Shown here: positions 6,756-37,709 of the stretch, piece after piece
Layout of the letters: every line of letters begins with the position of its first letter
Position numbering within the stretch: the stretch's first letter is position 1
Virus record (IMG/VR): IMGVR_UViG_3300028388_006015
Coordinates: 1 to 64,000 of that record
DNA: 64,000 nucleotides
Direction: 5' to 3' (one strand)
DNA from: a virus
Notes under the pieces: generated by a model
What the model was told of the DNA's origin: nothing
The model's input: only the letters and a program-made list of their open reading frames with translations
Databases searched by the model: none
Position numbers and translations under genes: made by a program

Positions 6756-6768
6756 AAACACAGTTTGA

Positions 6769-8016
6769 TTAAATGTCAAGAGACGGACGCTTCTTGCCTC
6801 CAGATTTTTTAGGCTGTTCTTCAACCTCTTCTTCTTCCTCTTCGTCCTCGATTTCCTCTTCCTCCTCTATAGGCTGATCAATTTCTATTTCCTCCTCTTC
6901 CTCCTCCTCTTCGATATCGTCATCTTCGGCATTCATTTCTTCGCGAATGAGATTACGCAAATCGTCATCGCTATACTTCTTGAGTACGCGAATATTGAGA
7001 TTGTTGTGTTTGATGAACACTTTGAGTTCTGTGCGATTCATCTCATCGTACTTGTCACCAGTTTCCTCCTCTTCATCCATTTCCTCTTCTTCTTGATCGT
7101 CCGCAACAGGATACAGGTCACTAAGGAATGCGATCATTTCGAGAAAACCTTCATCTTCAAACACGCCATATCCGTGCTTTTCGTCAAAAAGGCGAAGGCC
7201 CTGTACTGCCATTTCAAAATCACTGGACGTATACTTATTAACGTAGATGTTTTCAAGGGGCTCAACACTATCCATCTCTTCAAGTTGCTTGTCGGGCAAT
7301 GGTAGTGGACGAGGGTAGTTTTTATTGCCAAGAATAGCGAACGAGCAACGATATCTATCTTTAGGCTGCACACCTTGACCGTTGTCGTATTTGATTGTAA
7401 TAGGTACTCCTTCGTCAATATCTGTAAATGGCTCAGTTCCAATAGCCCCCTCTCCACTTGCAAGAACATTCATATCATCCTTTACGGTCGTTTTCAGTTC
7501 GAGGCGGTCGAGACTGCCGAATTCAATGCCTTTGTCGGTTTCACGAATATCCCATGCATAAACAATCCATGTCGTATTGGGACGAATGCCACCAACAAAA
7601 CTATTGCTTGTGCGATATCCATAAATGTGCTTCAGATACGCGTAGCGCTCTTTTTTGTCAGAATACAATGATTGCGCGATCTTGTTGGCTACTTTGATAT
7701 ATTCATCAACAATGTCGTGACGATTGTGCTCTGAATGAATGCGCGCATCAAAAACTGGTTTGCGAATAATCTTTTTCTCGCCTTGCTTGTCACCGTCAAC
7801 TTCCATAGGAAGATAACTGCGACTGAATGGATACCAGAATGCAAGAGTGTCTGGATGTGCAGGAGCAATGCGGAAATGGTTCGCACCAGGTTTTACTGTA
7901 TGAAATCCGCCTCGGCGTGATTTCGAGCCACTAACTGCTTCAGTTTCTTGCTCTTGATTGGCAATAACTTCCACTTTAGTCGCTTTGTACTTTTGACGAT
8001 AATCGTCTCTGTTCAT
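6769..8016 (-). CDS. Single-stranded DNA-binding protein (gp32-like) with acidic tail and an internal HeH-like motif
   Basis: GFHTVKPGANHFRIAP N-terminus; very long E/D tracts; sits in the recombination cluster. Confidence 0.65.
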   Translation of the reverse strand: MNRDDYRQKYKATKVEVIANQEQETEAVSGSKSRRGGFHTVKPGANHFRIAPAHPDTLAFWYPFSRSYLPMEVDGDKQGEKKIIRKPVFDARIHSEHNRHDIVDEYIKVANKIAQSLYSDKKERYAYLKHIYGYRTSNSFVGGIRPNTTWIVYAWDIRETDKGIEFGSLDRLELKTTVKDDMNVLASGEGAIGTEPFTDIDEGVPITIKYDNGQGVQPKDRYRCSFAILGNKNYPRPLPLPDKQLEEMDSVEPLENIYVNKYTSSDFEMAVQGLRLFDEKHGYGVFEDEGFLEMIAFLSDLYPVADDQEEEEMDEEEETGDKYDEMNRTELKVFIKHNNLNIRVLKKYSDDDLRNLIREEMNAEDDDIEEEEEEEEIEIDQPIEEEEEIEDEEEEEEVEEQPKKSGGKKRPSLDI

Positions 8017-8629: not shown

Positions 8630-11600
8630 TTAAACTACAACATAATTGCAATCTTCACCTATCGAGTGAATGCAATTACAATTATTATATGTGTCATACT
8701 GTACTTTACCAAATAAAAGTAGGATTCGTCCTTCATTGCCCTTAATAGCAGAACGAACATCATCCCAAACATCAGGCCATGCTAGTATCGTTAATATTTC
8801 GTCATTAACTTGTAATGTGATAATGCCAAATTTGTCAGATCTTTTTGTTTTGCGCTGTTTAAATTCAACAATAACACCACCAACAATAGTGTTTCTGCCT
8901 ACAGAATCTTTTGATTGCAATTCATTCCAATCCATCCATGTATGTGAGTAATCACTAACAAACGCACTACTCTTGATTAATTCAAGAAAATCAATATGTC
9001 CTAAGCCGCACAATTCGCGCTGTTTCAATATCCACCAATATGGATACTGACGTCCCTCATCCTCTTTAAGATTGAAAATTTCAGGTTCGTAGCCGTAATC
9101 CATATAATAACGATAAAGAACATCCATTCTCTTTTCTGGACTCGTTACATCACACACGTCATCAAATGCTCCACAGTAAATAAGATTTTCAACGACACGC
9201 TTATTGACTTTGCGCTTCTCAACACAATCCAAGAAATCTGACAATCCAAAAAACTGTCCTCCATTAGCCTTTCTCGCATCAATTATATGTTGAGATGCTA
9301 CAGCACCAACATGCTTTATCTTATCAAAAGACCAATAGATATTATTGTGATCGTTTGTAAGGTATGTTGATTGAGACTTATTGATATCAGGTGGAAGAAC
9401 ATCAAAGTCCATATTGAGATGATTGATCTCAGATAGGTAATTAGGGATATCGTGATCTTTGGCAAATTGAAAGGCTGTTATCCAAAACTCAAGAGGGTAG
9501 TTTACTTTAAACCACTGTGAAATATAACCAGTTATCGCATAAGCTGCAGCATGAGATCTATTAAACCCATATCCTGCAAACACTTCCAACTTATTCCAAA
9601 TTTCCTCAGCCTCTTTTGCAGAACAATCATTCTTGATAGCACCCTTTATAAACTTGTCTTTGTACTCGTCCATAAGGTGCTGAATCTTCTTACCCATCGC
9701 CTTACGTACAGCATCAGCCTCACTTGCAGAAAAACCACCAAGAACGCGACATGCGCTCATAACTTGCTCTTGATATATATATAGACCGTATGTTGATTGT
9801 GTTACGCTTTTAAGCTTAAAATCATATTCCGGTTGCTCTTCGCCAAATTTACGTTTAACGTATTTAATATGAGCTCCTGTACCAATTGCACCAGGTCGAT
9901 ATAACGCGATCATTGCAATGAGATCTTCTATGTTCTGAGGCTTAACTTCAACAGAATATGACTTTAATCCTGCACTGCCAAAGTGAAAGTTATCCTCATT
10001 ATACCCTTTACTATACAGCTCATACACACGATTATCGTCAAGGGGAATGTTTTCGATATCTATTCTTTTGCCATGATTACGCTCAATAAGCTCGATAATG
10101 TTTTGAAACTTGTCTAATTGCTCAATGCCAAGAATGTCTTCTTTTAGAAAACCAGTTTTTTCTGTAAACTCTCCTTCCCATTCACTAATAAGCATGTTGC
10201 CTTCTTTTCTTAAAGGTACATACGTATATAAATCACTATCAATGTTATTGTGGTCTTTCTTGGGAACAATCAGAGTTGCACATGCATGAACGCCAACACT
10301 TTTAGGTTGATGAAGTAGATCTATAATGTCGTTAATGTATATGGCATTACTTTGCACAAATTCATACAACTGAGGCTTAGATTTCGCATTTGCAAATAAC
10401 AAGGATATCTCATTAGTTGCGCGTGAATCTTCATCGAGCATTTTAGTAAGTAACGAGCGATGTCCTGCATTAATAGATCGAATACGACCAATTTCTTGAA
10501 TCGCTGATTTGATCTGTAACGTCTGAACAGTTCCAACACTACACACATAATCAAAACCATACTTTTGTTGCATGTATGCTTTAACCTCTTCTCTTCGAGT
10601 GCCAGGAAAATCAGTGTCGATATCAGGCATAGATTTCTTAATACGAGCTTCATTGAGAAATCGCTCAAACAACAAATTGTATTTTATCGGGTCAATTTTG
10701 GTTATATTTAATAAATATGAAACAAGACAACCACCTGCACTTCCTCTACCAATTCCCGTTATTATGCCATTTTGTTTACACCACATAACCAGATCCCACA
10801 GTATAAGAAAATAATCAACAAACCCTCCTTGCTTAATAATGCGCACTTCTTCTTTGAGACGAGCAATGTATTTCGGCCAATCATCTTGATCAACCTTTTG
10901 GTACAGGCCCTCTTCGAGAATACTCTTAAACAACGTATCACGATCGCCATACTGCTGTAATTGCTGCTCGTCTAACTCATACTGTGGAAGATGGAGATTT
11001 TTAGTATCGACTAAGAAATTACACGCATCAACAATCAATTGTGTATTGATGCACATTTGCTTAAATGCCTTTTGAAAAGCAATATCGTCTGTTGCTAATT
11101 CTTGTGCTTGAACGAATAAATCGTCACAGTTCTTAAAGTATTGATCGTATGACGTTTGACTAAATTTTCCGCTTATACGACTTAGTGTTTGGCGAACACC
11201 ACTATTATGATGATTGCAATAGTATATGTCGTCACACCATATAAATTCAATACGCTCTTTATGGGCGTGGTAATTCTTTGTTAATGTTGTTAGGCGTAAA
11301 CGATCATAATCGTTATTCATAAAGCGCGTCAATGTAAATTGACCATAAAACATATCAAAACTACCAACACCCTGCACTATTGTATCAAAACTATGTTCGC
11401 GATCACTCATATTGATAATACACGCCAATCCTTTGCTGTATTGAGTGCTAAGATCTTGCCAATTAATGCTACGCACCTCATCATCTGTAATGTTAAGTTT
11501 ATGGCTAATCTTGAGAAGGTTTTGCCAACCATCTTCGTTAAGAGCATATACTTTAACACCATCAACATATTCATCAAAATCAACATCAACACTCATGCCA

Positions 11601-12097
11601 ATTATTGGCTTTATGTTGTGTTTAAGACATTGTAATTGAAAATCAACAACACCACGCAAAGTATGATGTTCTGCAATGCCAAGTGCACTAATTCCTAAAA
11701 ATTTTGCTTTGCGACAATAATCAGAATACTCTCCACTACCACTCAAGATCTCATACTTGCCATGAATAGCGAGTGGACTGTAATCTAAAACAATGCCTTG
11801 ATCTGAAACACCGATATATAAGAAATCATTAAACTGGGGATGAATATCGTCGCACGAATTATAGTAAAATCGCCTACCAAAGTGATAAACAAAAAAATGT
11901 GGATCGAACTTACGAGCCAAAATGATCTCCGAAGCACTAAGTGAAAGTTGAAAGTCATCGTTGATGAGAAACGACTTATCCTCTAGTAACAGAAAAGTGT
12001 GATCGGTTCCTTCAACACCAAACACTCTGCCATCTGCTGCTATTGGATAAATGCTAATCTTATTGTTATAACACCATTGATCGAACGCCTCACTCAT
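8630..12097 (-). CDS. dnaE: DNA polymerase III alpha subunit (family C)
   Basis: PHP domain (IHGKYEILSG, IKPIIG), GIGRGSAGGCLVSYLLNIT, LLFERFLN, MPDIDTDF, ALYRPG, YGFNRSHAAAY, C-terminal OB fold; ~100-aa N-terminal extension. Confidence 0.97.
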   Translation of the reverse strand: MSEAFDQWCYNNKISIYPIAADGRVFGVEGTDHTFLLLEDKSFLINDDFQLSLSASEIILARKFDPHFFVYHFGRRFYYNSCDDIHPQFNDFLYIGVSDQGIVLDYSPLAIHGKYEILSGSGEYSDYCRKAKFLGISALGIAEHHTLRGVVDFQLQCLKHNIKPIIGMSVDVDFDEYVDGVKVYALNEDGWQNLLKISHKLNITDDEVRSINWQDLSTQYSKGLACIINMSDREHSFDTIVQGVGSFDMFYGQFTLTRFMNNDYDRLRLTTLTKNYHAHKERIEFIWCDDIYYCNHHNSGVRQTLSRISGKFSQTSYDQYFKNCDDLFVQAQELATDDIAFQKAFKQMCINTQLIVDACNFLVDTKNLHLPQYELDEQQLQQYGDRDTLFKSILEEGLYQKVDQDDWPKYIARLKEEVRIIKQGGFVDYFLILWDLVMWCKQNGIITGIGRGSAGGCLVSYLLNITKIDPIKYNLLFERFLNEARIKKSMPDIDTDFPGTRREEVKAYMQQKYGFDYVCSVGTVQTLQIKSAIQEIGRIRSINAGHRSLLTKMLDEDSRATNEISLLFANAKSKPQLYEFVQSNAIYINDIIDLLHQPKSVGVHACATLIVPKKDHNNIDSDLYTYVPLRKEGNMLISEWEGEFTEKTGFLKEDILGIEQLDKFQNIIELIERNHGKRIDIENIPLDDNRVYELYSKGYNEDNFHFGSAGLKSYSVEVKPQNIEDLIAMIALYRPGAIGTGAHIKYVKRKFGEEQPEYDFKLKSVTQSTYGLYIYQEQVMSACRVLGGFSASEADAVRKAMGKKIQHLMDEYKDKFIKGAIKNDCSAKEAEEIWNKLEVFAGYGFNRSHAAAYAITGYISQWFKVNYPLEFWITAFQFAKDHDIPNYLSEINHLNMDFDVLPPDINKSQSTYLTNDHNNIYWSFDKIKHVGAVASQHIIDARKANGGQFFGLSDFLDCVEKRKVNKRVVENLIYCGAFDDVCDVTSPEKRMDVLYRYYMDYGYEPEIFNLKEDEGRQYPYWWILKQRELCGLGHIDFLELIKSSAFVSDYSHTWMDWNELQSKDSVGRNTIVGGVIVEFKQRKTKRSDKFGIITLQVNDEILTILAWPDVWDDVRSAIKGNEGRILLLFGKVQYDTYNNCNCIHSIGEDCNYVVV

Positions 12098-12722
12098 AAT
12101 ATGATATATTTTTGTTGTGAAACCAATTAAGTAGCAACTGGGCCTTATATAAAGTAATGTGCTTTATGTAAGTTCCATATCTATTATTCTTGCCAAACTT
12201 ATATTGTGTTTTCTCAAAGTAAGATGGAACATTCTCATATAGGAATTTTTGAGAACGGAATAGTGGAAAATACATGCCAAACTCAAAATAATCTTGTAAT
12301 GTTGGTCGAAAATGCTTTAATCTAAGAATTGGCCTCGCATCGTATGTAATGATAACGCTTTTTGCTCGAAATTGCCATCCTAAATCTTCTACATCGAAAG
12401 GTGGGTATAAAAAGAGGTTGTTTTTAAGTTTTTCTCTAATGCCTGGAAATTCTTTCACGTAAAATCTTCCACTATATTCAGCGTCAGAAGACATACGTTT
12501 CTTCTGAGAAACATTTGTCCATTTCGACAACCAATAGTAAAAGTCCAATTTCAATCGAATTCCCTCAAGAGGAGCCAATATTTCACAGTATTCAATAAGT
12601 TGACAATCTCTAGGATACAATACACCAACTTCATTTTCAACACGATCACGCATAAGTCTTCGCGCTTTTGTTGGCGTGTCAACCTCGTCCGTTTGACATA
12701 GTGCGTAAATAATTTCTATCAT
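12090..12722 (-). CDS. Hypothetical protein overlapping the dnaE start
   Basis: 210-aa ORF, aromatic and basic. Confidence 0.6.
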   Translation of the reverse strand: MIEIIYALCQTDEVDTPTKARRLMRDRVENEVGVLYPRDCQLIEYCEILAPLEGIRLKLDFYYWLSKWTNVSQKKRMSSDAEYSGRFYVKEFPGIREKLKNNLFLYPPFDVEDLGWQFRAKSVIITYDARPILRLKHFRPTLQDYFEFGMYFPLFRSQKFLYENVPSYFEKTQYKFGKNNRYGTYIKHITLYKAQLLLNWFHNKNISYYE

Positions 12723-12799: not shown

Positions 12800-13630
12800 C
12801 TACTTATCTGCATCTTCTTTCTCGGCTGTTTGACCAGATGCTTTTTTCGCCTCTATTACCAGCTGATACTTAGAGATTACAGAATACACGAAGCTGTAGT
12901 GAGAACCAACCATACGAGCAATTTGTGCTTTGGGATATCCCAAATCAAACAAACGCCGCATACGTTCGGACTTCTTGAGCTGAGGATCTTCAATGATGCG
13001 CTGAGCGTCTTTGGTCATTGGCTTTTCCACAACCTGACGGCCACGGGCCTTACTACCTTCACTGTCATCTTTCTTCTTGGAAGTTGTCTTCTTGACAGAA
13101 GCTTTTTTAGCTGCTTTGGTCGTAGACTCTTTTTTTGCAGGTGCCTTCTTTGTCGTTGATTTCTTGGCGGTAGGCGTCTTAGCTGCCGGTTTTTTCTTAG
13201 CAGTAGTCTTTTTTGCAGCGCCTTTTTTAGCGGGTGCTTTTTTTGCAGTGCCAATAATGTCGTCCAAAGCACTTTGTGCATCTGCTGCAGAAACAACACC
13301 TTCGTACTTATCAACGAGGTCGTCGTATTCTACTGTTTCGACAGTGCGCGAAAGATCGGTGCCTTCAGGAAGATTGTCAACGATTGTTTGCAGTTCGCCT
13401 TTAAAGCCGTCAAGTGTCAACGACTGTTCACTTTTTTGTTCGGAAGGTTGGTTGCTTTCAGGCTCTTGCTTAACGGGCTGTTCTTGTTCGGGTTGAGCGT
13501 CTTCTGAGAGCGATTCCATCAACAGAGTGCGCAACTCTTCGGCCTTTTGGCCGTTGAACTTAATTCCCACCTCTTTTGCCATCCTGATCAAGGCAGGGTA
13601 CTTTGCATTTTGAATTTCTGCTTTAGTCAT
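12800..13630 (-). CDS. Histone-H1-like DNA-binding protein (HeH-like N-terminus, PAKK/TAKK repeats, C-terminal HTH)
   Basis: AKKAPAKKGAAKKTTAKKKPAAK... tract; KKSERMRRLFDLGYPKAQIARMVGSHYSFVYSV HTH. Confidence 0.75.
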   Translation of the reverse strand: MTKAEIQNAKYPALIRMAKEVGIKFNGQKAEELRTLLMESLSEDAQPEQEQPVKQEPESNQPSEQKSEQSLTLDGFKGELQTIVDNLPEGTDLSRTVETVEYDDLVDKYEGVVSAADAQSALDDIIGTAKKAPAKKGAAKKTTAKKKPAAKTPTAKKSTTKKAPAKKESTTKAAKKASVKKTTSKKKDDSEGSKARGRQVVEKPMTKDAQRIIEDPQLKKSERMRRLFDLGYPKAQIARMVGSHYSFVYSVISKYQLVIEAKKASGQTAEKEDADK

Positions 13631-13718: not shown

Positions 13719-14561
13719 TTAATCCAGGGACGTGTTCTGGAGAATTTTTTGTATCCACTTGATATTCTTCTTAACGTTACTTTCAAAATGCAAGTCTGGT
13801 TGAGCTGCGTAAAAGTCGACCTCACGAGCAATTTTGCCATTAACTAAGCCTCTCGCACTGTTGTCAAATGTAATACCATTATATGCATGCCATATCGCAG
13901 TACTAGAGTCGTTGCTATATGCAAGGCGCAACTTTTTCATTAATAATAATTCTCTAGGGTCACCACATCCTAAAAAGTGATGACGTGCATTAACGACTGT
14001 AAGATGGTTTTGTTGAAGATGAATCGTAGCAAATGTGCGATTTAGTGAAATATCTTTAGTTCCAGTTAATGATTGAAATGCATTAGGAATACCAAGAATA
14101 CTCATCCCGACCCACCAAAGGCGAAAATCGTTAGTAGAGGCTGCCTGTTGATACAATATACTTTTGTAACACATAATCCATCCTCTCCAGTCCCCTATTT
14201 CAGATTGAGGTACGCCCATTAAAGCAACACTATCAGGAAGATTATGTTCTTTCCATACCAGCGCGTCAGAAAATGCTTCTGCTGTCTTCTGCCAATTATC
14301 TCCCGGATAGTCTGGAGCTACAATAACATTTGGTATGATCGCTGCTTTTTCAAGCTTAGCCCATATATGTTCAAGGCTCATTGGAGAACCATTTTCAAAA
14401 GCACCATTATCAACAATAATGAAATCACCTCTTTCACTCTTATCGCGATAAAAGTCGCAATATTTCTTATTGTCAAGAAGATGTGCGAGTAATAAGTGAA
14501 AATCACTGTTTTGAGGTACGTAATCTAATAATGGAATTGGAGCAATATATGCATGCTTCAT
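13719..14561 (-). CDS. dpdA: TGT-fold 7-deazaguanine transglycosylase (DpdA, probably DpdA3-like)
   Basis: TGT motifs in order: IVDNGAFE (DSGGF-like), IVAPD, MGVPQ, HHFLGC, SNDSS. 280 aa, no tRNA-TGT Zn site; last gene of the que cluster. Confidence 0.8.
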   Translation of the reverse strand: MKHAYIAPIPLLDYVPQNSDFHLLLAHLLDNKKYCDFYRDKSERGDFIIVDNGAFENGSPMSLEHIWAKLEKAAIIPNVIVAPDYPGDNWQKTAEAFSDALVWKEHNLPDSVALMGVPQSEIGDWRGWIMCYKSILYQQAASTNDFRLWWVGMSILGIPNAFQSLTGTKDISLNRTFATIHLQQNHLTVVNARHHFLGCGDPRELLLMKKLRLAYSNDSSTAIWHAYNGITFDNSARGLVNGKIAREVDFYAAQPDLHFESNVKKNIKWIQKILQNTSLD

Positions 14562-15049
14562 TGTGATTGCATTTTATTGATAATGAATTGTTTTACTTTA
14601 GTCAAACCAAGCTCATTGTCTCTTTCGTTCGCCTTATCAAAATTCTCAATAGACGTCTGTCCGTTCTTATCACTCTGTTGACGAAATCGCTCATATCGCT
14701 CTTCATAAGGAGCCTCTATCCATATATATGTGCAATTTGGTAAGTCTTGAATCAAAGACAGTTGTCTTGGTCCAATAACTAATACAAGAATATTAATGTT
14801 AAGCGATATAGACTGATCGTAAAAATCTGCAACGCGATTGTGAATGGTTTGTTTAATCGCCTGTTCGAGATGAGCACTATCTTGAAGATCTGAACGCTTA
14901 TCGGAGTTCAGAAGATTTCTTACAATCATTGAAATCTCAATAATGCCAATGAAATCGTATACTCCGTTAAGGCTCTGTTCTGCTATTGTTGCGGCAAGTG
15001 TGCTTTTTCCACTACACAACTTACCGGCTATTACCATTGTTGCTATCAT
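14558..15049 (-). CDS. P-loop nucleoside-monophosphate-kinase-like protein
   Basis: IAGKLCSGKST Walker A; IGPRQ; IWIEAPYEERYER lid motif. TAATG overlap with dpdL and ATGA overlap with dpdA. Confidence 0.75.
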   Translation of the reverse strand: MIATMVIAGKLCSGKSTLAATIAEQSLNGVYDFIGIIEISMIVRNLLNSDKRSDLQDSAHLEQAIKQTIHNRVADFYDQSISLNINILVLVIGPRQLSLIQDLPNCTYIWIEAPYEERYERFRQQSDKNGQTSIENFDKANERDNELGLTKVKQFIINKMQSQ

Positions 15050-15399
15050 TACTGTCTCATTACTTTTGCGCCATTTTCTCCGTCCTCGAGTACAGTGCAA
15101 GATTCTAAATTAAAATCCTTGACCAGCAAACGAGCAATCATCTCGCAACTCATATTGCCAAAGTCCAACATTGCATATGTTGGCGACATATATGTTATTT
15201 CAAGATAGTCACGCACTGCACGTTTAAATAGAATAATCTCGATGTCTCGATCGTCATGCGTCACGCTCTTTTCGCACGTAATGTGAAATATATGACGATG
15301 AGGGTATTCAAGAAACTGAACTGTGACATCAAACTGACCTGCGTCCGGCCAACAATGAATTCCTTCTACCTGAAGATTGATAATTATGTTAACTCTCAT
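15049..15399 (-). CDS. dpdL: QueD-paralog T-fold protein (DpdL-like, predicted CDG decarboxylase)
   Basis: EGIHCWP, LEYPHRHIF (LxxxHRHxF), HDDRDIE, SCEMIA, EDGENGA; a second T-fold gene beside a canonical queD. Confidence 0.75.
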   Translation of the reverse strand: MRVNIIINLQVEGIHCWPDAGQFDVTVQFLEYPHRHIFHITCEKSVTHDDRDIEIILFKRAVRDYLEITYMSPTYAMLDFGNMSCEMIARLLVKDFNLESCTVLEDGENGAKVMRQ

Positions 15400-16061
15400 G
15401 CTTTGCGTTGTTTGTCGTTTTGATAGGAAGATCCCTTAGATTCGTTACCGTATAAGTCTCCATCCTGAACAGGATTAACTGAATGAGCGAGAATTTGACC
15501 GAGACGAGCATCTTTTTGAATGATCACACTTCCATTTAACACATGAAACACAGTGCCCATTTGTTCAGTCTCGAATCCTGGATCGAATACTGCAGAAACG
15601 AGAAGACATGAACCGCGCAACATCGTTGATCTATGACGAATTTCAAGCCATGTGTCTGCAGGAATCTGACAGCCTTCATTGAATGTAATGTGATAAGAAC
15701 CAGGTTTCAATCTCCAACAAATACCATACTCGTCATGCATAAAAGTAGCACATTCGCGAAGAGGACGAAGATACTTTTTCTCAAAGCCAACAACAAGTTC
15801 AATATCTTCTCCATCAGCGGCAGTAAAAACTTCCTGTTCTATTTTAGCAACAGTAAGATCAATACCAACTTGTTGAATTTGTTTGTCGAGACGAGAAACA
15901 ATATCAACAAAGTCTTTGCGGTCTTGATCGGTCATGTCTTCTTTGAGAAGAAGTTGAGGAAGGTTGGTAATGATGCCACTTTCGTATAGATCGCGACCAT
16001 TCATCGTTGTTAATGGATAGTTAACAGCGGAATACGGAAAAATATCTTGCAAATGAATCAT
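15396..16061 (-). CDS. Trimeric dUTPase/dCTP-deaminase-fold protein
   Basis: QQVGIDLTV, LKPGSY, RSTMLR, AVFDPGF, ARLGQI, C-terminal YG..SYQ. Confidence 0.85.
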   Translation of the reverse strand: MIHLQDIFPYSAVNYPLTTMNGRDLYESGIITNLPQLLLKEDMTDQDRKDFVDIVSRLDKQIQQVGIDLTVAKIEQEVFTAADGEDIELVVGFEKKYLRPLRECATFMHDEYGICWRLKPGSYHITFNEGCQIPADTWLEIRHRSTMLRGSCLLVSAVFDPGFETEQMGTVFHVLNGSVIIQKDARLGQILAHSVNPVQDGDLYGNESKGSSYQNDKQRKA

Positions 16062-16093: not shown

Positions 16094-16738
16094 TTATAAT
16101 GATTTGCTAATCAAACTGAAGAATTCAACTCTCGTACCAACTTCGTTTGTGTGAAAGTACCCTGAAAGCTGTGACGTGCGCATCAAACTGTCGTGACGAA
16201 CACCTCTACAACCAACACATTGATGTTTGGCTTCAATAACTACAGCAACTCCTCTGTTGCCTGTACACTTTTTATTTACAAAATCGTGCACTTGTTTCGT
16301 TAACGATTCTTGAACATTGGGCCTACGAGCAAACCAATCAACGATGCGATTGAGTTTAGAGAGACCAACCATACGATCGTCCACATTTTTGCCAGGAATA
16401 TATGCTACATGAGCTACACCAATAAATGGCAAATTGTGATGAGCACACATACTGTGAACAGGAATATTGCATTGAATAATCTGACCAGTGTATCGCTCTT
16501 CGTTAGGGAATGCTGTAATTTTAGGCTCTTGTGAAAAACATCCCACTGCAAGATCATTAAACCACGCTTTTGCTACACGTAATGGTGTGTCTCGCATATG
16601 TGGATCGTATTGCCAATCAAAACCCAAAGCAGTTAAGAATTTACCATAGTGTTTTGCAGCCAAATGTGTGCGAGTTTCTATTTCAGCTTCAGTCAAAGGA
16701 TTGTTTTGATTGTGATAAATCTTTCTATCTAAGCTCAT
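16094..16738 (-). CDS. folE: GTP cyclohydrolase I
   Basis: DTPLRVAKA, SMCAHHNLPFIGVAHVAYIP, GLSKLNRIVD, RRPNVQESLT, HQCVGCRGV. Confidence 0.97.
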   Translation of the reverse strand: MSLDRKIYHNQNNPLTEAEIETRTHLAAKHYGKFLTALGFDWQYDPHMRDTPLRVAKAWFNDLAVGCFSQEPKITAFPNEERYTGQIIQCNIPVHSMCAHHNLPFIGVAHVAYIPGKNVDDRMVGLSKLNRIVDWFARRPNVQESLTKQVHDFVNKKCTGNRGVAVVIEAKHQCVGCRGVRHDSLMRTSQLSGYFHTNEVGTRVEFFSLISKSL

Positions 16739-16752
16739 AAGACTTTTTTTTG

Positions 16753-17016
16753 TTAATGATAAGGTTGACAGTAAGTTATTGTAATTTGTTCTCGATAATT
16801 CGCGTAATATTCTTTTATTGCACACAATTCGTGAATAATCTCCTGTTCAGAAGGCATTTGTGGAAAGAATAATTGCTCCTGATGCTCTCTAGGAAGAGGG
16901 AGCATATTGATTTGCAACTTGATTAAAAATTTGCAATTGTGATGGGTGTTACCTTCATCTTCCGGATTAATATCGGAATATCCCAAATGCCTTTTATAGA
17001 GTTCTTCTTTACTCAC
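16753..17016 (-). CDS. Hypothetical protein inside the deazaguanine cluster
   Basis: 87-aa ORF overlapping the queE stop. Confidence 0.5.
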   Translation of the reverse strand: MSKEELYKRHLGYSDINPEDEGNTHHNCKFLIKLQINMLPLPREHQEQLFFPQMPSEQEIIHELCAIKEYYANYREQITITYCQPYH

Positions 17017-17795
17017 ACCTCTCTTTTATTGCCGTGAATAATAATGTGCAAACGATCTGTGTAATTGTATCCACGCTCAATGCAGATCTGTTCAAGCCAT
17101 TGACGTGATTGTTCAAGTTTTTCATTCACATCACCTGCAGGCATAAGCCAACAATGATTTGCAGGTATATTAAGAACGACACGAATATGTTCAAACTCTT
17201 TAAGGGAGTCATCATCCTCAATAACCGGTTTAACTTGATAATCTTTACAACCACAACGAATCCATGATTTCATTGCGTCATAATTGCTACGCCATTTATT
17301 GTGACGATCTACGTCTTTCTGAGTTACCTTGCGACCAATCTCTGTAATAAAACTATCAACGACAGGTACAGAGTTGCTAAGCTTAGGCGAAAGAGAGAGT
17401 AAATCAATTCGATGAGATAAACGAGTGCCAAACCATTCGATCCATTCAGAACCTTCAGTTTCGAGTGTAATGTGACTGTCAGAAACACGCCACCGAATAA
17501 ACTCAACAACTTGTGGTAAAATTGTCTTTTGAAGTGTAGGACCTCCTCCAGTAATTATAAAGTGCTTGATATGCTGATTTTCACTAATTAAAGCAGCAAT
17601 GCGCTCGTACGTCCAAGATCCCTTTTCTGGTTTCCATGAAGAATACCAAGTATCACAAACACTATTTGCGAATTGACATCTCAATCGACAACCGACAAAA
17701 CGAATCATAATGCTTGGTGTTCCTATAAGTTTTCCTTCACCCTGCAAACAAGTGTACACCTCATTTATTGGCAGTGGTTTACTTTCTGTCATCAT
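17013..17795 (-). CDS. queE: 7-carboxy-7-deazaguanine synthase (radical SAM)
   Basis: EVYTCLQGEG..IGTPSIMIRFVGC, CRLRCQFANSVCDT (CX3CX6C), ITGGGP, TLETEG, SLSPKL, RLHI. Confidence 0.93.
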   Translation of the reverse strand: MMTESKPLPINEVYTCLQGEGKLIGTPSIMIRFVGCRLRCQFANSVCDTWYSSWKPEKGSWTYERIAALISENQHIKHFIITGGGPTLQKTILPQVVEFIRWRVSDSHITLETEGSEWIEWFGTRLSHRIDLLSLSPKLSNSVPVVDSFITEIGRKVTQKDVDRHNKWRSNYDAMKSWIRCGCKDYQVKPVIEDDDSLKEFEHIRVVLNIPANHCWLMPAGDVNEKLEQSRQWLEQICIERGYNYTDRLHIIIHGNKREV

Positions 17796-18360
17796 ATTCG
17801 ACAATTCCTTTTTCTTTGGCATATTCTAATATGTGTTTGCTGTTATATTCACGAAAATTCAATCGTTCCGCATGATCAATGTCATTGGTTCGCACTATTG
17901 TATAGCACTTAGGAGTTTCATACAAAGTTACGGCAGTTGGTATGAGTCCTTTATATTCAAGAAATAACAATTCCATGGCAAGTAAAATCTCCTTTGCTAT
18001 GTTCTCTACAGTTGGATTGCAATATTTCAATCCTGTTCGTGTAAAAGGCTGCTCGTTAGGATCTTGTCTGCCATTTAAACTCATAACCCATGCTTTAGAT
18101 CCGAGCTTTTTGCACATATCCAAGATCTCCTCGTCGTGCGGATTAGCAATAAATCCGTGATCTAGTAAATCGTCGATCCATTGCATACCAACGCGCTTAA
18201 TTTCTTTAAAATCAATCGCATAGCCGATCTCTGCCATTGACGAGAATGAGAAGTGGACGTGACAAATGTATGTATGTCCGTGGATGTTGAAACATTTCAT
18301 CTTTTCATTCATCACTCTATGTCCACTATCAAATGTGGTTATTCTAACAATCTCTTGCAT
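17779..18360 (-). CDS. queD: 6-carboxy-5,6,7,8-tetrahydropterin synthase
   Basis: FDSGHRV, CFNIHGHTY, IDFKEIK, LDHGFI, NPTVENIA, YETP. Confidence 0.93.
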   Translation of the reverse strand: MQEIVRITTFDSGHRVMNEKMKCFNIHGHTYICHVHFSFSSMAEIGYAIDFKEIKRVGMQWIDDLLDHGFIANPHDEEILDMCKKLGSKAWVMSLNGRQDPNEQPFTRTGLKYCNPTVENIAKEILLAMELLFLEYKGLIPTAVTLYETPKCYTIVRTNDIDHAERLNFREYNSKHILEYAKEKGIVEYDDRK

Positions 18361-19376
18361 TATGATGTAATTTTGTTTTCTAGGCTAAAATAGAATTGTC
18401 CCCAGGATGATCTATTGTTAAAACACTTGAAAAACTCGTTACGAGAAATTTCGTCAGGATCTCCCAAAGAAGAGTATGCAATCTCAACTTTTTCAAAACA
18501 AAAAGATAAGTCCATTGTAGATTTTTTTATATCTGCAATTGCCCCCGCATCAAAGAATACAATAAGATGCGCAACTTGCTTCTGCTTTAATAGCTCTATC
18601 TGATGTTGAGATATCTTTTTTCCAAACGTACAGCAGCACGACATGCCTGGTGTTGTGTTTAAACTCAAGTTGTTATCTATCGCCTTTTTGTCAAAAATCC
18701 CTTCACACAATATTACAATATCTCCCTGCTCTACATCGTCCAGTCCAAAAAGCATACTGCTAAAATCGTGACTTGAATTATCGTACCTCAGTATCTTAGG
18801 TAAATCTTTTTGTTTACGAGTCTCATTAATTCGATCAAGCTTTTCTTTACTGTATACGTGACGTGACTGGTATCCTGTTAATACGCCATGTGTATACACT
18901 AAAAAATACACATACTTCTTCATGCTTGGAAGAAGGTTGCATACTCCAACGTTATATGCATCATACTGCCAAGGTTCAAAACCTCTTTGTTCGCAATAAG
19001 GATGCTGATTAACGCGACGAAATCCTAATGGAGGCTTAGCTTGTGGGAGATCTTGTTTTTGCGGATGATCGTTAAAAGACAGTGTATTTTTAGTAAAATT
19101 GAATATATCTGCAGAAGGCTTAATAAAGATGAGATCGCTCTGTCCTATTCGATTAAGCAACTTTTTAACAAAACCATTTTCAGAGCAACGTTTACAGTCG
19201 AAAAAGAACGATGCATTGCGACCTGATCTTTTAAGACGTTTCGTTGTTTTCTTCTGCAGATATAAATGCGACTTCTTGCCACAGAAAGGACAATCACATA
19301 TCCAGTGCGAATTCTTGCCGTTTGGATATGGATTTAACTGAGCAATTGCTTTTTCGATAATATCATTTGAAAGCAT
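18360..19376 (-). CDS. DNA primase (Zn finger + TOPRIM)
   Basis: CPFC...CKRC zinc finger; VILCEGIFD, FFDAGA, GDPDE. Confidence 0.88.
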   Translation of the reverse strand: MLSNDIIEKAIAQLNPYPNGKNSHWICDCPFCGKKSHLYLQKKTTKRLKRSGRNASFFFDCKRCSENGFVKKLLNRIGQSDLIFIKPSADIFNFTKNTLSFNDHPQKQDLPQAKPPLGFRRVNQHPYCEQRGFEPWQYDAYNVGVCNLLPSMKKYVYFLVYTHGVLTGYQSRHVYSKEKLDRINETRKQKDLPKILRYDNSSHDFSSMLFGLDDVEQGDIVILCEGIFDKKAIDNNLSLNTTPGMSCCCTFGKKISQHQIELLKQKQVAHLIVFFDAGAIADIKKSTMDLSFCFEKVEIAYSSLGDPDEISRNEFFKCFNNRSSWGQFYFSLENKITS

Positions 19377-21047: not shown

Positions 21048-22733
21048 TTATATCCACGCAACAGAGAATCCTGCCCCTGTGTAATTTAATGCCTGAATAG
21101 CCTTCCAAATACTCAACACCGTATCATCGTGTGCACCTACTCCTTCCAAACCTTTTTCAGTCCATGCTATGCTGGTAAATTCACTAACAACTATATCGGT
21201 CATGTTGATACTATAACTGTCGCCTCGTGGAAAACGCATCTTGTCTTGTTCAAATAGCAAAACCATACCAGGAATTCCTCCTCGAAGATCGTATTTGTTT
21301 TTATTGGTCGTTAATCCAACAACAGGAAGGTTACTTTCTTTTCCACCATCAAGAAGAAATGTTTGCATTTGATTATCTTCAATCCCTATAATATCAGGAC
21401 GAAAATCTCGGTGTACTCTCTTTAATAATCCAAGTTGCTGATTGTATGTTAATCCCTTTTCTCTACCCATAGCTATTAACCAATATGTTCCTTGAGAATC
21501 AATACCCATAACAGTCCATACGAAAAAGTCGGCACCAACATTAGCGCTTCGAGCAATATCCACACCAACTGCTATTTTTCTAAAATTGACTGGAAAATTA
21601 CTACGATTTTTGACAAGTTTATACTTTTCCATACCAACAAACGCCCTCGATACCAACTTATATGGAAATATCGTAGACTCGCTCGTAACTGGTTTTACCA
21701 AAATCTCTCGAGAAAAAATTATTGATCCCTGAGTATCGAGCTTCTCTAATAGTGTATCAACATCATAACGACCTTCCCATAACAATCTACCATCAGGAAA
21801 TATTGCAGGATACTCGAACACTTTCCATCCAGGCTTTTGTTTGAGATCTGCATATAAATCAAGATCAGAAAATGGCGTTCCTACCACAACAACTTGGCCG
21901 CCTGGAACAATGGCGTTCATTATAACACTATGGAAGTAATTGATGTACTTTTCACGCTGATCTTGAGAGTACAAATTACTATCGTTCAGAAAATCATCAG
22001 GCACAACCCAACCTGGGTGAAACCCTCTCATTTTACTGCCGTATGATTTAACAGCTAATCGCGCTCCATTCTTACAAATAATCTCTTCTTTACCCCACCC
22101 ATCTTTACCTGTTGGCTTTAATGCTGCACGTAAAATATCATTATTTTCGATATTCTCCTTTAGTGTCTTCAAATGCTCTTTAGCAAGTGAATATTCGTTA
22201 GTTATAATAATGCCCTTTCCAAACGTCAATTCCTTAGGATATCTCTTGAATCGCGTGTTTTTGTGATATCTGTATAACTTCCATGCTGGATATGCACCTG
22301 CAGAAAAACTGAAGCTTTTCGAGTGGTCACGAGCAGCGATAAAACATACATATTTATGTATTTGCACTAAATTAAACCACTCAATATGATGCCAATTCAT
22401 TTCAAACTCAGGCATCACAGTTGCAACGAAATAGTTGAGATTGAGATATCTCAATGTTTCGTCAACACTTTCTGTTAGGCGATCTAAATAATCGAACGTA
22501 TTAGTCTTGATCTTGCTTGTTCTACTACCATAAAGCACCTCATACGTCTCTTGATATAGCGTTTCCATCATACTGTCGACATCATCACTATTGCCTGAAA
22601 ATAGCTCATTCAGTGCATACTCGTCAAGATTAGTTATGATGACATCAACATAATTGTAAATACTTTCAATTTGACCTAATGTGAGTGCTTCAGAATTATC
22701 ATTAAATGGTAGCCATATTTTACCGTTGGACAT
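21048..22733 (-). CDS. terL: Terminase large subunit
   Basis: MNWHH, AARDHSKS (Walker A), RGFHP..VVPDD (Walker B), VVGTP, DLY, GVDIA...ADF, GAHDDTV. Confidence 0.93.
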   Translation of the reverse strand: MSNGKIWLPFNDNSEALTLGQIESIYNYVDVIITNLDEYALNELFSGNSDDVDSMMETLYQETYEVLYGSRTSKIKTNTFDYLDRLTESVDETLRYLNLNYFVATVMPEFEMNWHHIEWFNLVQIHKYVCFIAARDHSKSFSFSAGAYPAWKLYRYHKNTRFKRYPKELTFGKGIIITNEYSLAKEHLKTLKENIENNDILRAALKPTGKDGWGKEEIICKNGARLAVKSYGSKMRGFHPGWVVPDDFLNDSNLYSQDQREKYINYFHSVIMNAIVPGGQVVVVGTPFSDLDLYADLKQKPGWKVFEYPAIFPDGRLLWEGRYDVDTLLEKLDTQGSIIFSREILVKPVTSESTIFPYKLVSRAFVGMEKYKLVKNRSNFPVNFRKIAVGVDIARSANVGADFFVWTVMGIDSQGTYWLIAMGREKGLTYNQQLGLLKRVHRDFRPDIIGIEDNQMQTFLLDGGKESNLPVVGLTTNKNKYDLRGGIPGMVLLFEQDKMRFPRGDSYSINMTDIVVSEFTSIAWTEKGLEGVGAHDDTVLSIWKAIQALNYTGAGFSVAWI

Positions 22734-35173: not shown

Positions 35174-37709
35174 TCTGCAAACGATTAACAAAAAAGTCAA
35201 AAACCTCCTGATTTACAGCAAAATTGCGCTTAATTTCAAGTTGCGCTTCATTACTGCCTCCGGTTAAGCTACTAACAATATATTGACGAATAAGCTCTGT
35301 ATCCACAATGTTAAAATACGAATATGTGGGATGGTCAATATATTTTTCAAACATACCTCTTTCAACCTGTAATGTTGTTGTGCGATCAATTATTTGGTTA
35401 GAGATCGAGTACGAATGAGATACAGAAGAGACGTAAAACAATTCACCAGTAGCAACATGTCTAATCCACGTACCTCTTTTAATTCTGCGATCTCCATTCA
35501 ATGTAATGCTTCCTCTGCGTGTAAATGGTAAATATGCGTTAATATCTATAACAAATTTAAGATCAATCGCTGTTTGCTCAACAACAAAATTTCTATCTTT
35601 TTTCTGATTACTACCAGTAAGACCGCTATATGGTAAATAATTAGAAACCACACTCAATCTACGACTTCCCCATATATCTGCATATTGAGGAAAATAAATG
35701 ATGGGGATGTATGCTAAAGATACAGAACTACCGGCTCCTAAAAACAACCCTTGAGGTTGAATTTCGTAAAACGAATAGATCTCACTGTCTTGATATTGCA
35801 CTTCAAAAGAAAGAACATCTGCAGGGTCAATATCGAGAATTAGTGTAGATCGCTCACCAGGCACCTGAAATGTTTCCTCTTCATTATCTGTATGATATTG
35901 AGCATTTATATATCCTTTAATACCTGCTTTATCAAACGGAGGTCGACGAGCAATAAAATAAAAAGAGTCGCCATAAGTATCTGTTATGAATTCAACAAAA
36001 GGCTTTTGGCAAACCTTCCATACTTGATTAATTAAAGAACCATCAGGTTGACTTATACTAGAATCTGCAATACGACGATCGGCAACATTTTCATCAACGA
36101 GCAACTTGATAATTTGCCAAATTCCTCGTGCAGGTCTTGATTCGATATCGCGATTATATGTTGTTTGTTGCAAACGATAATGCTCATATGCATATAAAAA
36201 TATAGTACTCGGCTCTACGCCAATTGTAGCACTACTATCGTTAGATAACGCAGACACCTGCTTAAATAAAAATACATCTTGACCTGCAATGGCTGTAGGT
36301 GTTGTATTAGCTGCTACTATTTGTCCTTGAAATGTGAAAGAATCATACCCAATAAGAGATACTCCATTAACAACAAGAGCGTCTTGTGCAACTGCTGCTT
36401 GTATTAAGTTGACTATATTGTCAAAAATACTGGCTGCATTACCGTCAGAATATTGCTCAATTTCACGTATCGCATTGTTCTTGATTATGCTTAATTGATA
36501 TTGGATTTCGTTTGTATTCTGCTGCTCAAGACGAAAAACTTCACTACGACGATCTCCATATGCAGAAAACAATGAATCTGTAGTTACTGCAATATTGGAT
36601 AGATGATTCATAATAAATTGCAGTGCAAAACGAATAGAACGAAATGTAAATGCACTTTGCAGAATGAATTGACCGTCTACAGCCAATCTCTTTATCAGCT
36701 TATCATTTTCATTAGGATTGATAAATACTCCCTGAGCAAATTGTAATGGGTAGAAATAACTACCATCATCAATAAGTACCTTTGCTAAATCTTTGCCTGT
36801 AATGTTAACTGTTACATCATTGCCCTCAGCACTATATGATAGTAAATTAGAATCAACAAGTCCAATCATATCGTATAACTTCAGATCGCCCTCACTCGAA
36901 GGAATTCGCGTTTTGTCTATAAAAAACGACCGGTTGCGAGATGATTCGATCTTCAATGGTTCAAACCTAATAAACACCACATCGTTAGGACTAACAATTG
37001 TATTCATTAAAAAATTACTCTGCTTGTATTGACCACCTGCTTTACGATTTGTTTGATTGAAGCTAATCAATTCATTTTTTGCAAAGAAGTCACTAACACT
37101 AGTATTGTGAATTATCCATTGATTTTGCTCGTTAAGACTGCATGTAATTGGAGCAAAGCTTAACTGAAAATTGCCACCATTTTCATCAACATTCGTTGTG
37201 CACGAAATAAGAAATGGAGTTACGTCAAGAAGTCTATCTCCACCAATTGCTTTACTCCATAGCCATACACTTATTCTCGGATGGCTTATTTTGGTTTTAT
37301 TTATTGTATCACCTGTGTAATATGATGTTTGAACATAAGAAGAGCTTTTAAGTAGTTGAGCATGAAATTGCGAAAGAAAAGCTGAAAATTTCTTAACATC
37401 TACTACTTGATTCGATCCAGTTATAGATAATGTTTCGCGAAACAACTTATCCTTAGGAAGGGCAAGTACAGTACCTACTTTAAGATCAACAAGTGTACCA
37501 TTATCGTACAATAATTGTGCAGCTTTTTTCTCTCGACGATTATACTTGAGCCATACACGATCGAGATTACTCAATCCATTCTGATCTGTATACTGCAGCA
37601 ACTCATCAGGTGTTAATTGTTTTGCAATAGATAGTCCGAATTGATCTAAAAACTCATCAATCGTTGTTATCTCGGGATCGTGATGTGTGTATAAAATATA
37701 TGGCTGCAT
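35166..37709 (-). CDS. Baseplate hub protein (gp27-like)
   Basis: 847 aa after the tape measure; ITGKDL, RRPPFD, RGSITLNGDRRIKRG, FYVSSVSHSY, TTLQVERG. Confidence 0.75.
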   Translation of the reverse strand: MQPYILYTHHDPEITTIDEFLDQFGLSIAKQLTPDELLQYTDQNGLSNLDRVWLKYNRREKKAAQLLYDNGTLVDLKVGTVLALPKDKLFRETLSITGSNQVVDVKKFSAFLSQFHAQLLKSSSYVQTSYYTGDTINKTKISHPRISVWLWSKAIGGDRLLDVTPFLISCTTNVDENGGNFQLSFAPITCSLNEQNQWIIHNTSVSDFFAKNELISFNQTNRKAGGQYKQSNFLMNTIVSPNDVVFIRFEPLKIESSRNRSFFIDKTRIPSSEGDLKLYDMIGLVDSNLLSYSAEGNDVTVNITGKDLAKVLIDDGSYFYPLQFAQGVFINPNENDKLIKRLAVDGQFILQSAFTFRSIRFALQFIMNHLSNIAVTTDSLFSAYGDRRSEVFRLEQQNTNEIQYQLSIIKNNAIREIEQYSDGNAASIFDNIVNLIQAAVAQDALVVNGVSLIGYDSFTFQGQIVAANTTPTAIAGQDVFLFKQVSALSNDSSATIGVEPSTIFLYAYEHYRLQQTTYNRDIESRPARGIWQIIKLLVDENVADRRIADSSISQPDGSLINQVWKVCQKPFVEFITDTYGDSFYFIARRPPFDKAGIKGYINAQYHTDNEEETFQVPGERSTLILDIDPADVLSFEVQYQDSEIYSFYEIQPQGLFLGAGSSVSLAYIPIIYFPQYADIWGSRRLSVVSNYLPYSGLTGSNQKKDRNFVVEQTAIDLKFVIDINAYLPFTRRGSITLNGDRRIKRGTWIRHVATGELFYVSSVSHSYSISNQIIDRTTTLQVERGMFEKYIDHPTYSYFNIVDTELIRQYIVSSLTGGSNEAQLEIKRNFAVNQEVFDFFVNRLQNE

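Follow-up and report, generated by a model that had tools for sequence, protein, structure and literature searches.

Gene content of the cassette

The window analysed here is the whole stretch of 64,000 nucleotides at positions 1 to 64,000 of the IMG/VR virus record IMGVR_UViG_3300028388_006015, a contig of 75,147 bp that is ~72% complete by CheckV. It carries a gene cassette, built around a transglycosylase of the DpdA3 type, that is almost certainly the module by which a phiST-like phage modifies its genome with 7-deazaguanine (dDG type). Every gene of the module region lies on the minus strand, in the order primase-like gene, QueD, QueE, an 87-aa open reading frame (ORF), FolE, a gene for a protein of the dUTPase/dCTP deaminase (Dcd) fold, DpdL, a kinase gene, DpdA3, two ORFs and the gene for a DnaE-type polymerase. 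The genes at the centre of the analysis are the following:

17779..18360, minus strand: QueD (6-carboxytetrahydropterin (CPH4) synthase), 193 aa; PF01242, E 2.1e-26; phrog_2389
17013..17822, minus strand: QueE (7-carboxy-7-deazaguanine (CDG) synthase, radical SAM), 269 aa; phrog_2076, E 4.2e-41, and a weak Radical_SAM match
16094..16825, minus strand: FolE (GTP cyclohydrolase I); PF01227, E 2.3e-45
15396..16061, minus strand: dUTPase/Dcd-fold nucleoside triphosphate (NTP) pyrophosphatase candidate, 221 aa; PF22769, E 7e-9
15049..15399, minus strand: DpdL (proposed CDG decarboxylase, QueD paralogue), 116 aa; homology to phiST CGPG_00067; phrog_17812, E 1.3e-24
14558..15049, minus strand: P-loop protein of nucleoside monophosphate (NMP) kinase fold, 163 aa; homology to phiST CGPG_00066; AAA_18, E 4e-6
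13719..14561, minus strand: DpdA3 (transglycosylase of the tRNA-guanine transglycosylase (TGT) fold), 280 aa; homology to phiST CGPG_00065, and fold
8630..12097, minus strand: DnaE-type replicative polymerase, 1155 aa; PHP, DNA_pol3_alpha, finger and HHH_6 domains

The original prediction, made from the sequence, had described a stop-to-start chain of four genes (dUTPase-fold, DpdL, kinase, DpdA) that follows queD, queE and folE and is flanked by the primase and DnaE genes. The minus-strand coordinates and junctions bear out the chain, the family matches agree with its surroundings, and the gene identifications proved right by Pfam and PHROG matches, homology to phiST and predicted folds. An ATGA at 15399-15396 is common to the stop of the Dcd-like gene and the start of DpdL, the TAA that ends DpdL (15051-15049) overlaps the ATG of the kinase gene (15049-15047) as TAATG, and a further ATGA (14561-14558) holds both the stop of the kinase gene and the start of DpdA3. 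Because of the TAATG overlap with the DpdL stop, we place the kinase start at 15049 (163 aa) and not at the listed TTG at 15100; for FolE, the ATG at 16738 (214 aa) is a more likely start than the listed GTG at 16825. Start/stop overlaps are frequent in phages and alone carry no significance; what goes beyond chance is the conservation of the linkage across distant relatives, described below.

The closest described counterpart is the dDG system of Cellulophaga phage phiST, which comprises FolE, QueD, QueE, DpdL and DpdA3 (Hutinet, Cui et al., NAR 2023, PMC10516641). Both phages share the order QueD-QueE-FolE-pyrophosphatase-DpdL-kinase-DpdA3-polymerase and the absence of QueC, and they differ in the pyrophosphatase slot, which is occupied by a MazG-like protein in phiST and by the Dcd/dUTPase-fold protein in the window. 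The cassette is not new as such: as far as homology can tell, it is the phiST dDG module with a Dcd-fold protein in place of the putative MazG-like pyrophosphatase. QueC, phosphoribosyltransferase (PRTase) and DUF3310 genes were all looked for and not found in the 75-kb record, at its ~72% completeness, and blastn of the 2.3-kb four-gene block against 50,697 phage genomes returned no match.

Deazaguanine supply and DpdA3

By homology, it is established that FolE, QueD and QueE convert GTP to CDG. DpdL is the proposed decarboxylase that would turn CDG into 7-deazaguanine; the window protein is 41% identical to phiST CGPG_00067 (E 5e-26) and contains the sequence LEYPHRHIF, which fits the published DpdL signature LxxxHRHxF that replaces the CxxxHGH of QueD (PMC10516641). 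A DpdL gene is present in 76 of the 88 DpdA3 loci that we compared, a set made up of 80 IMG/VR loci retrieved with a DpdA3 profile plus isolate genomes retrieved by tblastn, with the neighbouring genes clustered.

The window DpdA3 matches phiST CGPG_00065, the founding DpdA3 (PMC10516641), with 26% identity by BLASTP (E 2e-20; tblastn E 4e-13), and belongs to phrog_20335. It has no Pfam match, and a profile search of the PDB was empty even at E 10, so that the link between DpdA3 and TGT rests on the fold. The AlphaFold2 (AF2) model is of high quality (mean predicted local distance difference test, pLDDT, 94.6), and the top 50 Foldseek matches are all TGT or ArcTGT structures (E 2.5e-7, prob 1.0, template modelling (TM) score about 0.55). 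Four residues, D51 (in DNGAF), D84, Q119 and D218 (in NDSS), are invariant among 33 DpdA3 homologues, and the catalytic motifs register with the DSGAF and CDSSS motifs of Enterobacteria phage 9g DpdA1 in an hhalign alignment whose overall probability of 5.9% confines it to motif register. Read from these motifs, D51/D84/Q119/D218 would correspond to D102/D156/Q203/D280 of TGT. DpdA3 is, as established by homology, a TGT-fold transglycosylase that forms a glycosidic bond and has an intact catalytic set, including the Asp pair.

Two further properties of DpdA3 were considered as clues to its substrate and dropped. Net charge or isoelectric point (pI) as a proxy for DNA binding gave no separation, the median pI being 5.4 for DpdA3 and 5.1-6.6 for the DNA-acting DpdA1 enzymes, and the missing Zn subdomain is uninformative, as 9g DpdA1 is likewise without an obvious CxCxxC...H motif. 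The predicted complex of DpdA3 with the window kinase scored 0.00, which has no bearing either way.

The pyrophosphatase slot

The AF2 model of the 221-aa Dcd-like protein (pLDDT 85) finds Dcd-Dut enzymes and archaeal dUTPases as its top Foldseek matches. Invariant in the alignment of the family (A2) are D160 of motif III, R144, S145 and R149 (RS..R), and R186 and Q189 (R..Q). In a hidden Markov model (HMM) alignment to the Dcd-Dut enzyme 4xjc, the column of the Dcd catalytic Glu (E138 in E. coli) holds Thr in the window protein and Cys, Ala or Val in its relatives. Since Thr replaces the catalytic Glu while the dUTPase-type motifs are kept, we regard the protein as a pyrophosphatase candidate and not a deaminase; an identity as dCTP deaminase was ruled out by the missing Glu.

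The Dcd-like gene is present in 84 of the 88 DpdA3 loci, mostly <350 bp away from DpdA3, and the four loci without it are those of phiST, where the MazG-like gene takes this position, and of Bacillus phage BSTP12, plus two that are cut off by contig ends. A pyrophosphatase gene is therefore near-universal in the module, an observation that is new with respect to the literature. Its distribution outside these loci is narrow: in a tblastn search of the 50,697 phage genomes, the strong matches (RHph_I1_18, D479, Ahp1, Bakedbeans and MA9V-3) all came from DpdA3 phages, the next ones from a single Bacteroides phage lineage (DAC16 and relatives), and canonical dUTPases appeared only near E 1e-3.

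Kinase families beside DpdA3

The window kinase is 27% identical to phiST CGPG_00066 (E 3e-6) and carries the N-terminal P-loop GKLCSGKST (Walker A). Its AAA_18 match (E 4e-6) and its PHROG match to 'guanylate kinase' are both weak, and tblastn against the 50,697 phage genomes found no match. The profile of the family (alignment A3, 11 members), searched against the PDB, retrieved the AdkA-like protein SSO1041 (7e-7), UMP/CMP kinase (4e-5) and adenylate kinases, and the family shares the conserved motifs SD(I/V)VR and DG(I/V)RQ. The P-loop of the family is unusual, G-x2-C-S-G-K-x, with S, T, D, N or G after the Lys in relatives instead of a fixed S/T. CGPG_00066 was left unassigned and stated to be without homologues in other deazaguanine phages (PMC10516641); on the basis of these profile matches, we assign it as a putative conserved NMP kinase whose family occurs in at least 15 loci, an assignment new to the literature.

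The occupant of the kinase slot changes from one lineage to another. The window-type (AAA_18) kinase lies directly upstream of DpdA3 in the window clade (L006-L018), in phiST and in Chryseobacterium phage MA9V-3, the last of which repeats the window order Dcd-like, DpdL, kinase, DpdA3 in a block that also contains ThyA and RecA. Campylobacter phage CC_R7 has the order QueC-like, DpdA3, Tmk/AAA_28-type kinase, DNA polymerase; the Campylobacter Firehammervirus dADG system resembles that of the window in its DpdA3-type enzyme and complete G replacement (CP220; Crippen et al. 2019, cited in PMC10516641) and differs in its QueC-like ADG synthase, its Tmk/AAA_28-type kinase, the absence of DpdL and a dUTPase-type match that is just weak and far from the locus. 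In Vibrio phage D479 and Aeromonas phage Ahp1, a deoxynucleoside monophosphate (dNMP) kinase of the T4 gp1 type sits between DpdA3 and the Dcd-like gene. Ahp1 encodes two such proteins, a canonical gp1 elsewhere in the genome (168 bits) and a divergent gp1-type copy in the cassette (54 bits):

Ahp1 record MT161459.1 (locus L004), 36691-37191 and 210755-211375: two T4 gp1-type dNMP kinases

In the marine T4-like loci, DpdA3 is followed by a ~100-aa DUF3310 protein (59 loci). DUF3310, absent from the window itself, is the sole Pfam domain of T7 gp1.7 (E 4.5e-23) and the one that gp1.7 has in common with the proteins next to or fused with DpdA3 in these relatives; DUF3310 proteins also have PHROG 'nucleotide kinase' matches, and T7 gp1.7 phosphorylates dTMP and dGMP (PMC11897194). 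DpdA3 and DUF3310 form a single polypeptide in Rhizobium phage RHph_I1_18 as well as in seven or more other protein clusters, with mutual identities of 41-57%; this gives at least eight fusion clusters, and up to 10 if two without a recorded DUF3310 match are counted. No DpdA3 fusion of more than 558 aa turned up when such proteins were searched for.

Four non-homologous kinase families (AAA_18, Tmk-like, T4 gp1-like and DUF3310) thus adjoin DpdA3 in different lineages: DpdA3 is accompanied by a kinase, which often belongs to a different family and in some cases is fused to it, and this is likewise new with respect to the literature. Since kinase type tracks clade in the DpdA3 tree, these cases amount to about four or five independent associations and not to dozens. 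The coupling of kinase and pyrophosphatase genes to DpdA3, on which the original prediction was built, is kept in nearly every lineage examined, and we infer that both enzymes are integral to the module.

The DpdA1 systems of Enterobacteria phage 9g and other Queuovirinae offer a contrast. They too place a TGT-family enzyme with DSGAF and CDSSSW-type motifs near FolE, QueD, QueE and a polymerase, but replace G partially (≤ 30%), and no kinase, DpdL or Dcd-like gene adjoins DpdA1 in the 9g locus or in those of 17 relatives; the 9g dUTPase lies 13 kb from the DpdA1 locus. As these controls cover a narrow range, consisting of Queuovirinae and three loci that are more distant, the contrast with DpdA3 is indicative and not statistical.

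Base exchange before or after replication

Complete replacement of G by 7-deazaguanines is now credited to a DNA transglycosylase, DpdA3, which nobody has got to work. Hutinet et al. propose post-replicative insertion by DpdA3, and expression of DpdA3 with DpdL in E. coli gave no dDG (PMC10516641). Replacement reaches 100% in DpdA3 phages, compared with ≤ 30% for other DpdA types; complete replacement in virion DNA has been published only for phiST, CP220 and immuto_2-6A, and the ADG nucleoside has been detected in the cytoplasm of infected cells (PMC10516641). Our literature search found no proposal of a pre-replicative deazaguanine route.

Pre-replicative pathways are well known for other modified genomes, namely hydroxymethylcytosine (hmC) in T4, with the dCTPase gp56, gp42 and the kinase gp1, and the Z-genomes, with MazZ, PurZ and DatZ. 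Complete replacement is typical of such systems, as in T4 (hmC), S-2L (Z) and PBS1 (dU). In the dU-DNA phages, Dcd and Dtt/Dtm likewise act before replication (PMC12697855). The T4, Z and dU pathways follow the same logic, in which a pyrophosphatase directed at the canonical deoxynucleoside triphosphate (dNTP) supplies the dNMP, a modifier acts on the dNMP, a dNMP kinase activates the product and the phage relies on its own polymerase. The gene inventory of the window matches this set, with a pyrophosphatase candidate, a kinase and DnaE, all recognised here from the genes alone.

Our leading reading, to which we give even chances, is the one put forward in the original prediction: the base would be exchanged on a free deoxynucleotide before replication, by a nucleotide-level mechanism. 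Its boldest form, in which DpdA3 would act on dGMP and, with a kinase of its own and a dUTPase- or MazG-type pyrophosphatase specific for purines, make up a pre-replicative route to a fully G-replaced genome, is put forward tentatively, with confidence somewhat short of even. In the nucleotide-level scheme, the Dcd-like enzyme (in phiST, the MazG-like protein) would cleave dGTP to dGMP, which would remove the competitor and supply the substrate; DpdA3 would then exchange guanine for 7-deazaguanine on dGMP, the adjacent NMP kinase would form the diphosphate, the nucleoside diphosphate kinase (NDK) of the host would provide the triphosphate, and the phage DnaE would incorporate 7-deaza-dGTP, leading to complete G replacement. 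The scheme departs from the T4, Z and dU pathways in two respects, as the proposed dNMP modifier is a TGT-fold base exchanger, for which there is no precedent, and the pyrophosphatase would need a purine specificity that is not known for the trimeric dUTPase fold.

A number of points weigh against this scheme. To our knowledge, all characterised TGT and DpdA enzymes act on polynucleotides, mononucleotide base exchange being unknown for the fold, and the trimeric dUTPase fold has no member known to us that is specific for purines. Charge and domain content fail to separate DpdA3 from the DNA-acting DpdA1. The best PDB match of the Dcd-like profile is 9w59, labelled 'probable dUTPase' (E 5e-27), and the MazG-like counterpart in phiST resembles dimeric dUTPases (PMC10516641), so that the simplest function common to the occupants of the slot is dUTP hydrolysis. 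Bacteroides phage DAC16 has a Dcd-like gene, and DpdA3 was not detected in it. As to the kinases, eight loci from two or three lineages have no recognisable kinase beside DpdA3, and the small DUF3310 proteins are without the N-terminal 120 residues (two thirds) of T7 gp1.7, so that they cannot be taken for granted as active kinases. The gene for the small DUF3310 protein moreover belongs to the core set of T4-like cyanophages and pelagiphages (464 records), and Synechococcus phage S-ShM2, which is without DpdA3, has the order CobS, DUF3310, gp45; in the marine T4-like clade, the adjacency of DUF3310 and DpdA3 is therefore in part inherited synteny.

Several of these points are what would be expected if DpdA3 were a processive, non-sequence-specific DNA transglycosylase working on finished DNA, as in the model of Hutinet et al. 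(PMC10516641), with an ordinary dUTPase and an ordinary dNMP kinase merely clustered around it. The TGT fold and catalytic motifs shared by DpdA3 and DpdA1, the resemblance of both slot occupants to dUTPases, the position of DUF3310 beside gp45 in the backbone of cyanophages without DpdA3, and the presence of ThyA and RecA within the MA9V-3 block all fit this explanation. It accounts less readily for the distribution of the accessory genes: the Dcd-like clade is absent from the backbone relatives without DpdA3, with no member among the same 464 T4-like cyanophage and pelagiphage records, four unrelated kinase families fill the slot that touches DpdA3, some of them fused to it, the Ahp1 cassette has a spare, divergent kinase in addition to the canonical gp1, and DpdA1 loci are devoid of these neighbours. 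The failure of DpdA3 and DpdL to modify DNA in E. coli and the completeness of replacement also speak against it. On balance, we rate insertion into finished DNA as possible but rather doubtful.

If the kinase and the pyrophosphatase do belong to the pathway, the TGT fold would have gained a mononucleotide substrate, and specificity for a purine would have arisen in the dUTPase or MazG fold. Genomes with 7-deazaguanine would then count as pre-replicative, alongside those with hmC, Z and dU. The 100% replacement would be accounted for, as would the failure to reconstitute the system in E. coli, and an enzymatic route to 7-deaza-dGTP analogues would become available. The question is directly testable, because the four-gene block is present in two cultured phages, MA9V-3 and phiST, the latter with the MazG-like protein in the pyrophosphatase slot.

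Phosphoribosyltransferases and the fate of guanine

Two features of the related cassettes bear on what happens to the guanine released by DpdA3. Of the 88 loci, 43 have a small type-I PRTase (PF00156) within the cassette (for example, L036:7373-7801 and L006:6617-7132), and the window-type kinase is associated with FolE, forming one 370-aa ORF with it in L015 (6720-7832) and adjoining it in L007, L009, L010 and L018. The kinase-FolE fusion fits a role in GTP supply, which counts against the pre-replicative scheme, although it could be an incidental fusion; together with the PRTases, fusion and adjacency are as compatible with a loop that returns guanine to GTP as with nucleotide activation.

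In such a loop, a guanylate kinase, together with the PRTase in relatives, would return the released guanine to GTP for use by FolE, whether DpdA3 acts on DNA or on nucleotides. The weak PHROG 'guanylate kinase' match of the window kinase points the same way. Because 6-oxopurine PRTases use N7 in catalysis, guanine is also a likelier PRTase substrate than 7-deazaguanine. Recycling of guanine as the purpose of these genes is nonetheless unlikely, as no PRTase was found in the 75-kb record of the window and the universal pyrophosphatase is left unexplained; furthermore, the T4 gp1-type and T7 gp1.7-type kinases found in the same slot are deoxynucleotide kinases (PMC11897194).

The frequency of PRTases in related cassettes would also suit a salvage route in which deazaguanine is phosphoribosylated, phosphorylated, reduced by ribonucleotide reductase (RNR) and incorporated, leaving DpdA3 only to correct residual G. 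We consider this very improbable: 7-deaza purines are poor PRTase substrates, no PRTase was found in the window record and none is reported for phiST, and it is DpdA3, not the PRTase, that is universal.

Flanking genes and other observations

The remaining genes of the module region are the following:

18360..19376, minus strand: primase-like protein, 338 aa, upstream module boundary; phrog_47 DNA primase, E 5.8e-21
16753..17016, minus strand: 87-aa ORF between QueE and FolE; no Pfam match
12800..13630, minus strand: 276-aa protein with a Lys/Ala-rich region; sub-threshold HC2 histone-H1-like match, no PHROG
12090..12722, minus strand: 210-aa protein; no Pfam or PHROG match

The 276-aa protein encoded right after DpdA3 may bind DNA, judging by its Lys/Ala-rich, HC2-like stretch. 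Terminator and promoter scans and folding of the region after DpdA3 gave nothing remarkable (z -0.9). Farther upstream, the replication block includes a 561-aa ORF (21048-22733, minus strand) that encodes a terminase RNaseH-like domain and has a DnaB-like helicase on one side and a DEDDh exonuclease on the other.

Other DpdA3 loci contain additional genes. In L006, the closest relative of the window, the PRTase is present although none was found in the 75-kb record, and a 380-aa gene of the histone-deacetylase family (PF00850; L006:8029-9171) stands between the Dcd-like gene and DpdL. Among the marine T4-like DpdA3 loci, genes resembling 2-oxoglutarate (2OG)-Fe(II) oxygenases flank QueE (L051:5263-5832 and 6765-7352), with up to three tandem oxygenase-like copies upstream of QueE in some.

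Six Bacteroides thetaiotaomicron phages encode a close member of the Dcd-like family (E 1e-32; DAC16, L089:6923-7420) and no detectable DpdA3. The neighbours of the gene in DAC16 are all annotated as hypothetical, and another kind of nucleotide or DNA modification may be present in these phages.

Bacillus phages of ~55 kb, among them BSTP12 (L088:5339-6687), encode a distant DpdA3-like protein (profile E 4e-16), and no Dcd-like gene was found. The DpdA3-like gene has Gat-QueC, QueD and two genes resembling FolE as neighbours; the gene before it encodes a 187-aa protein whose N terminus gives a P-loop-like match, and the one after it encodes DNA polymerase I.

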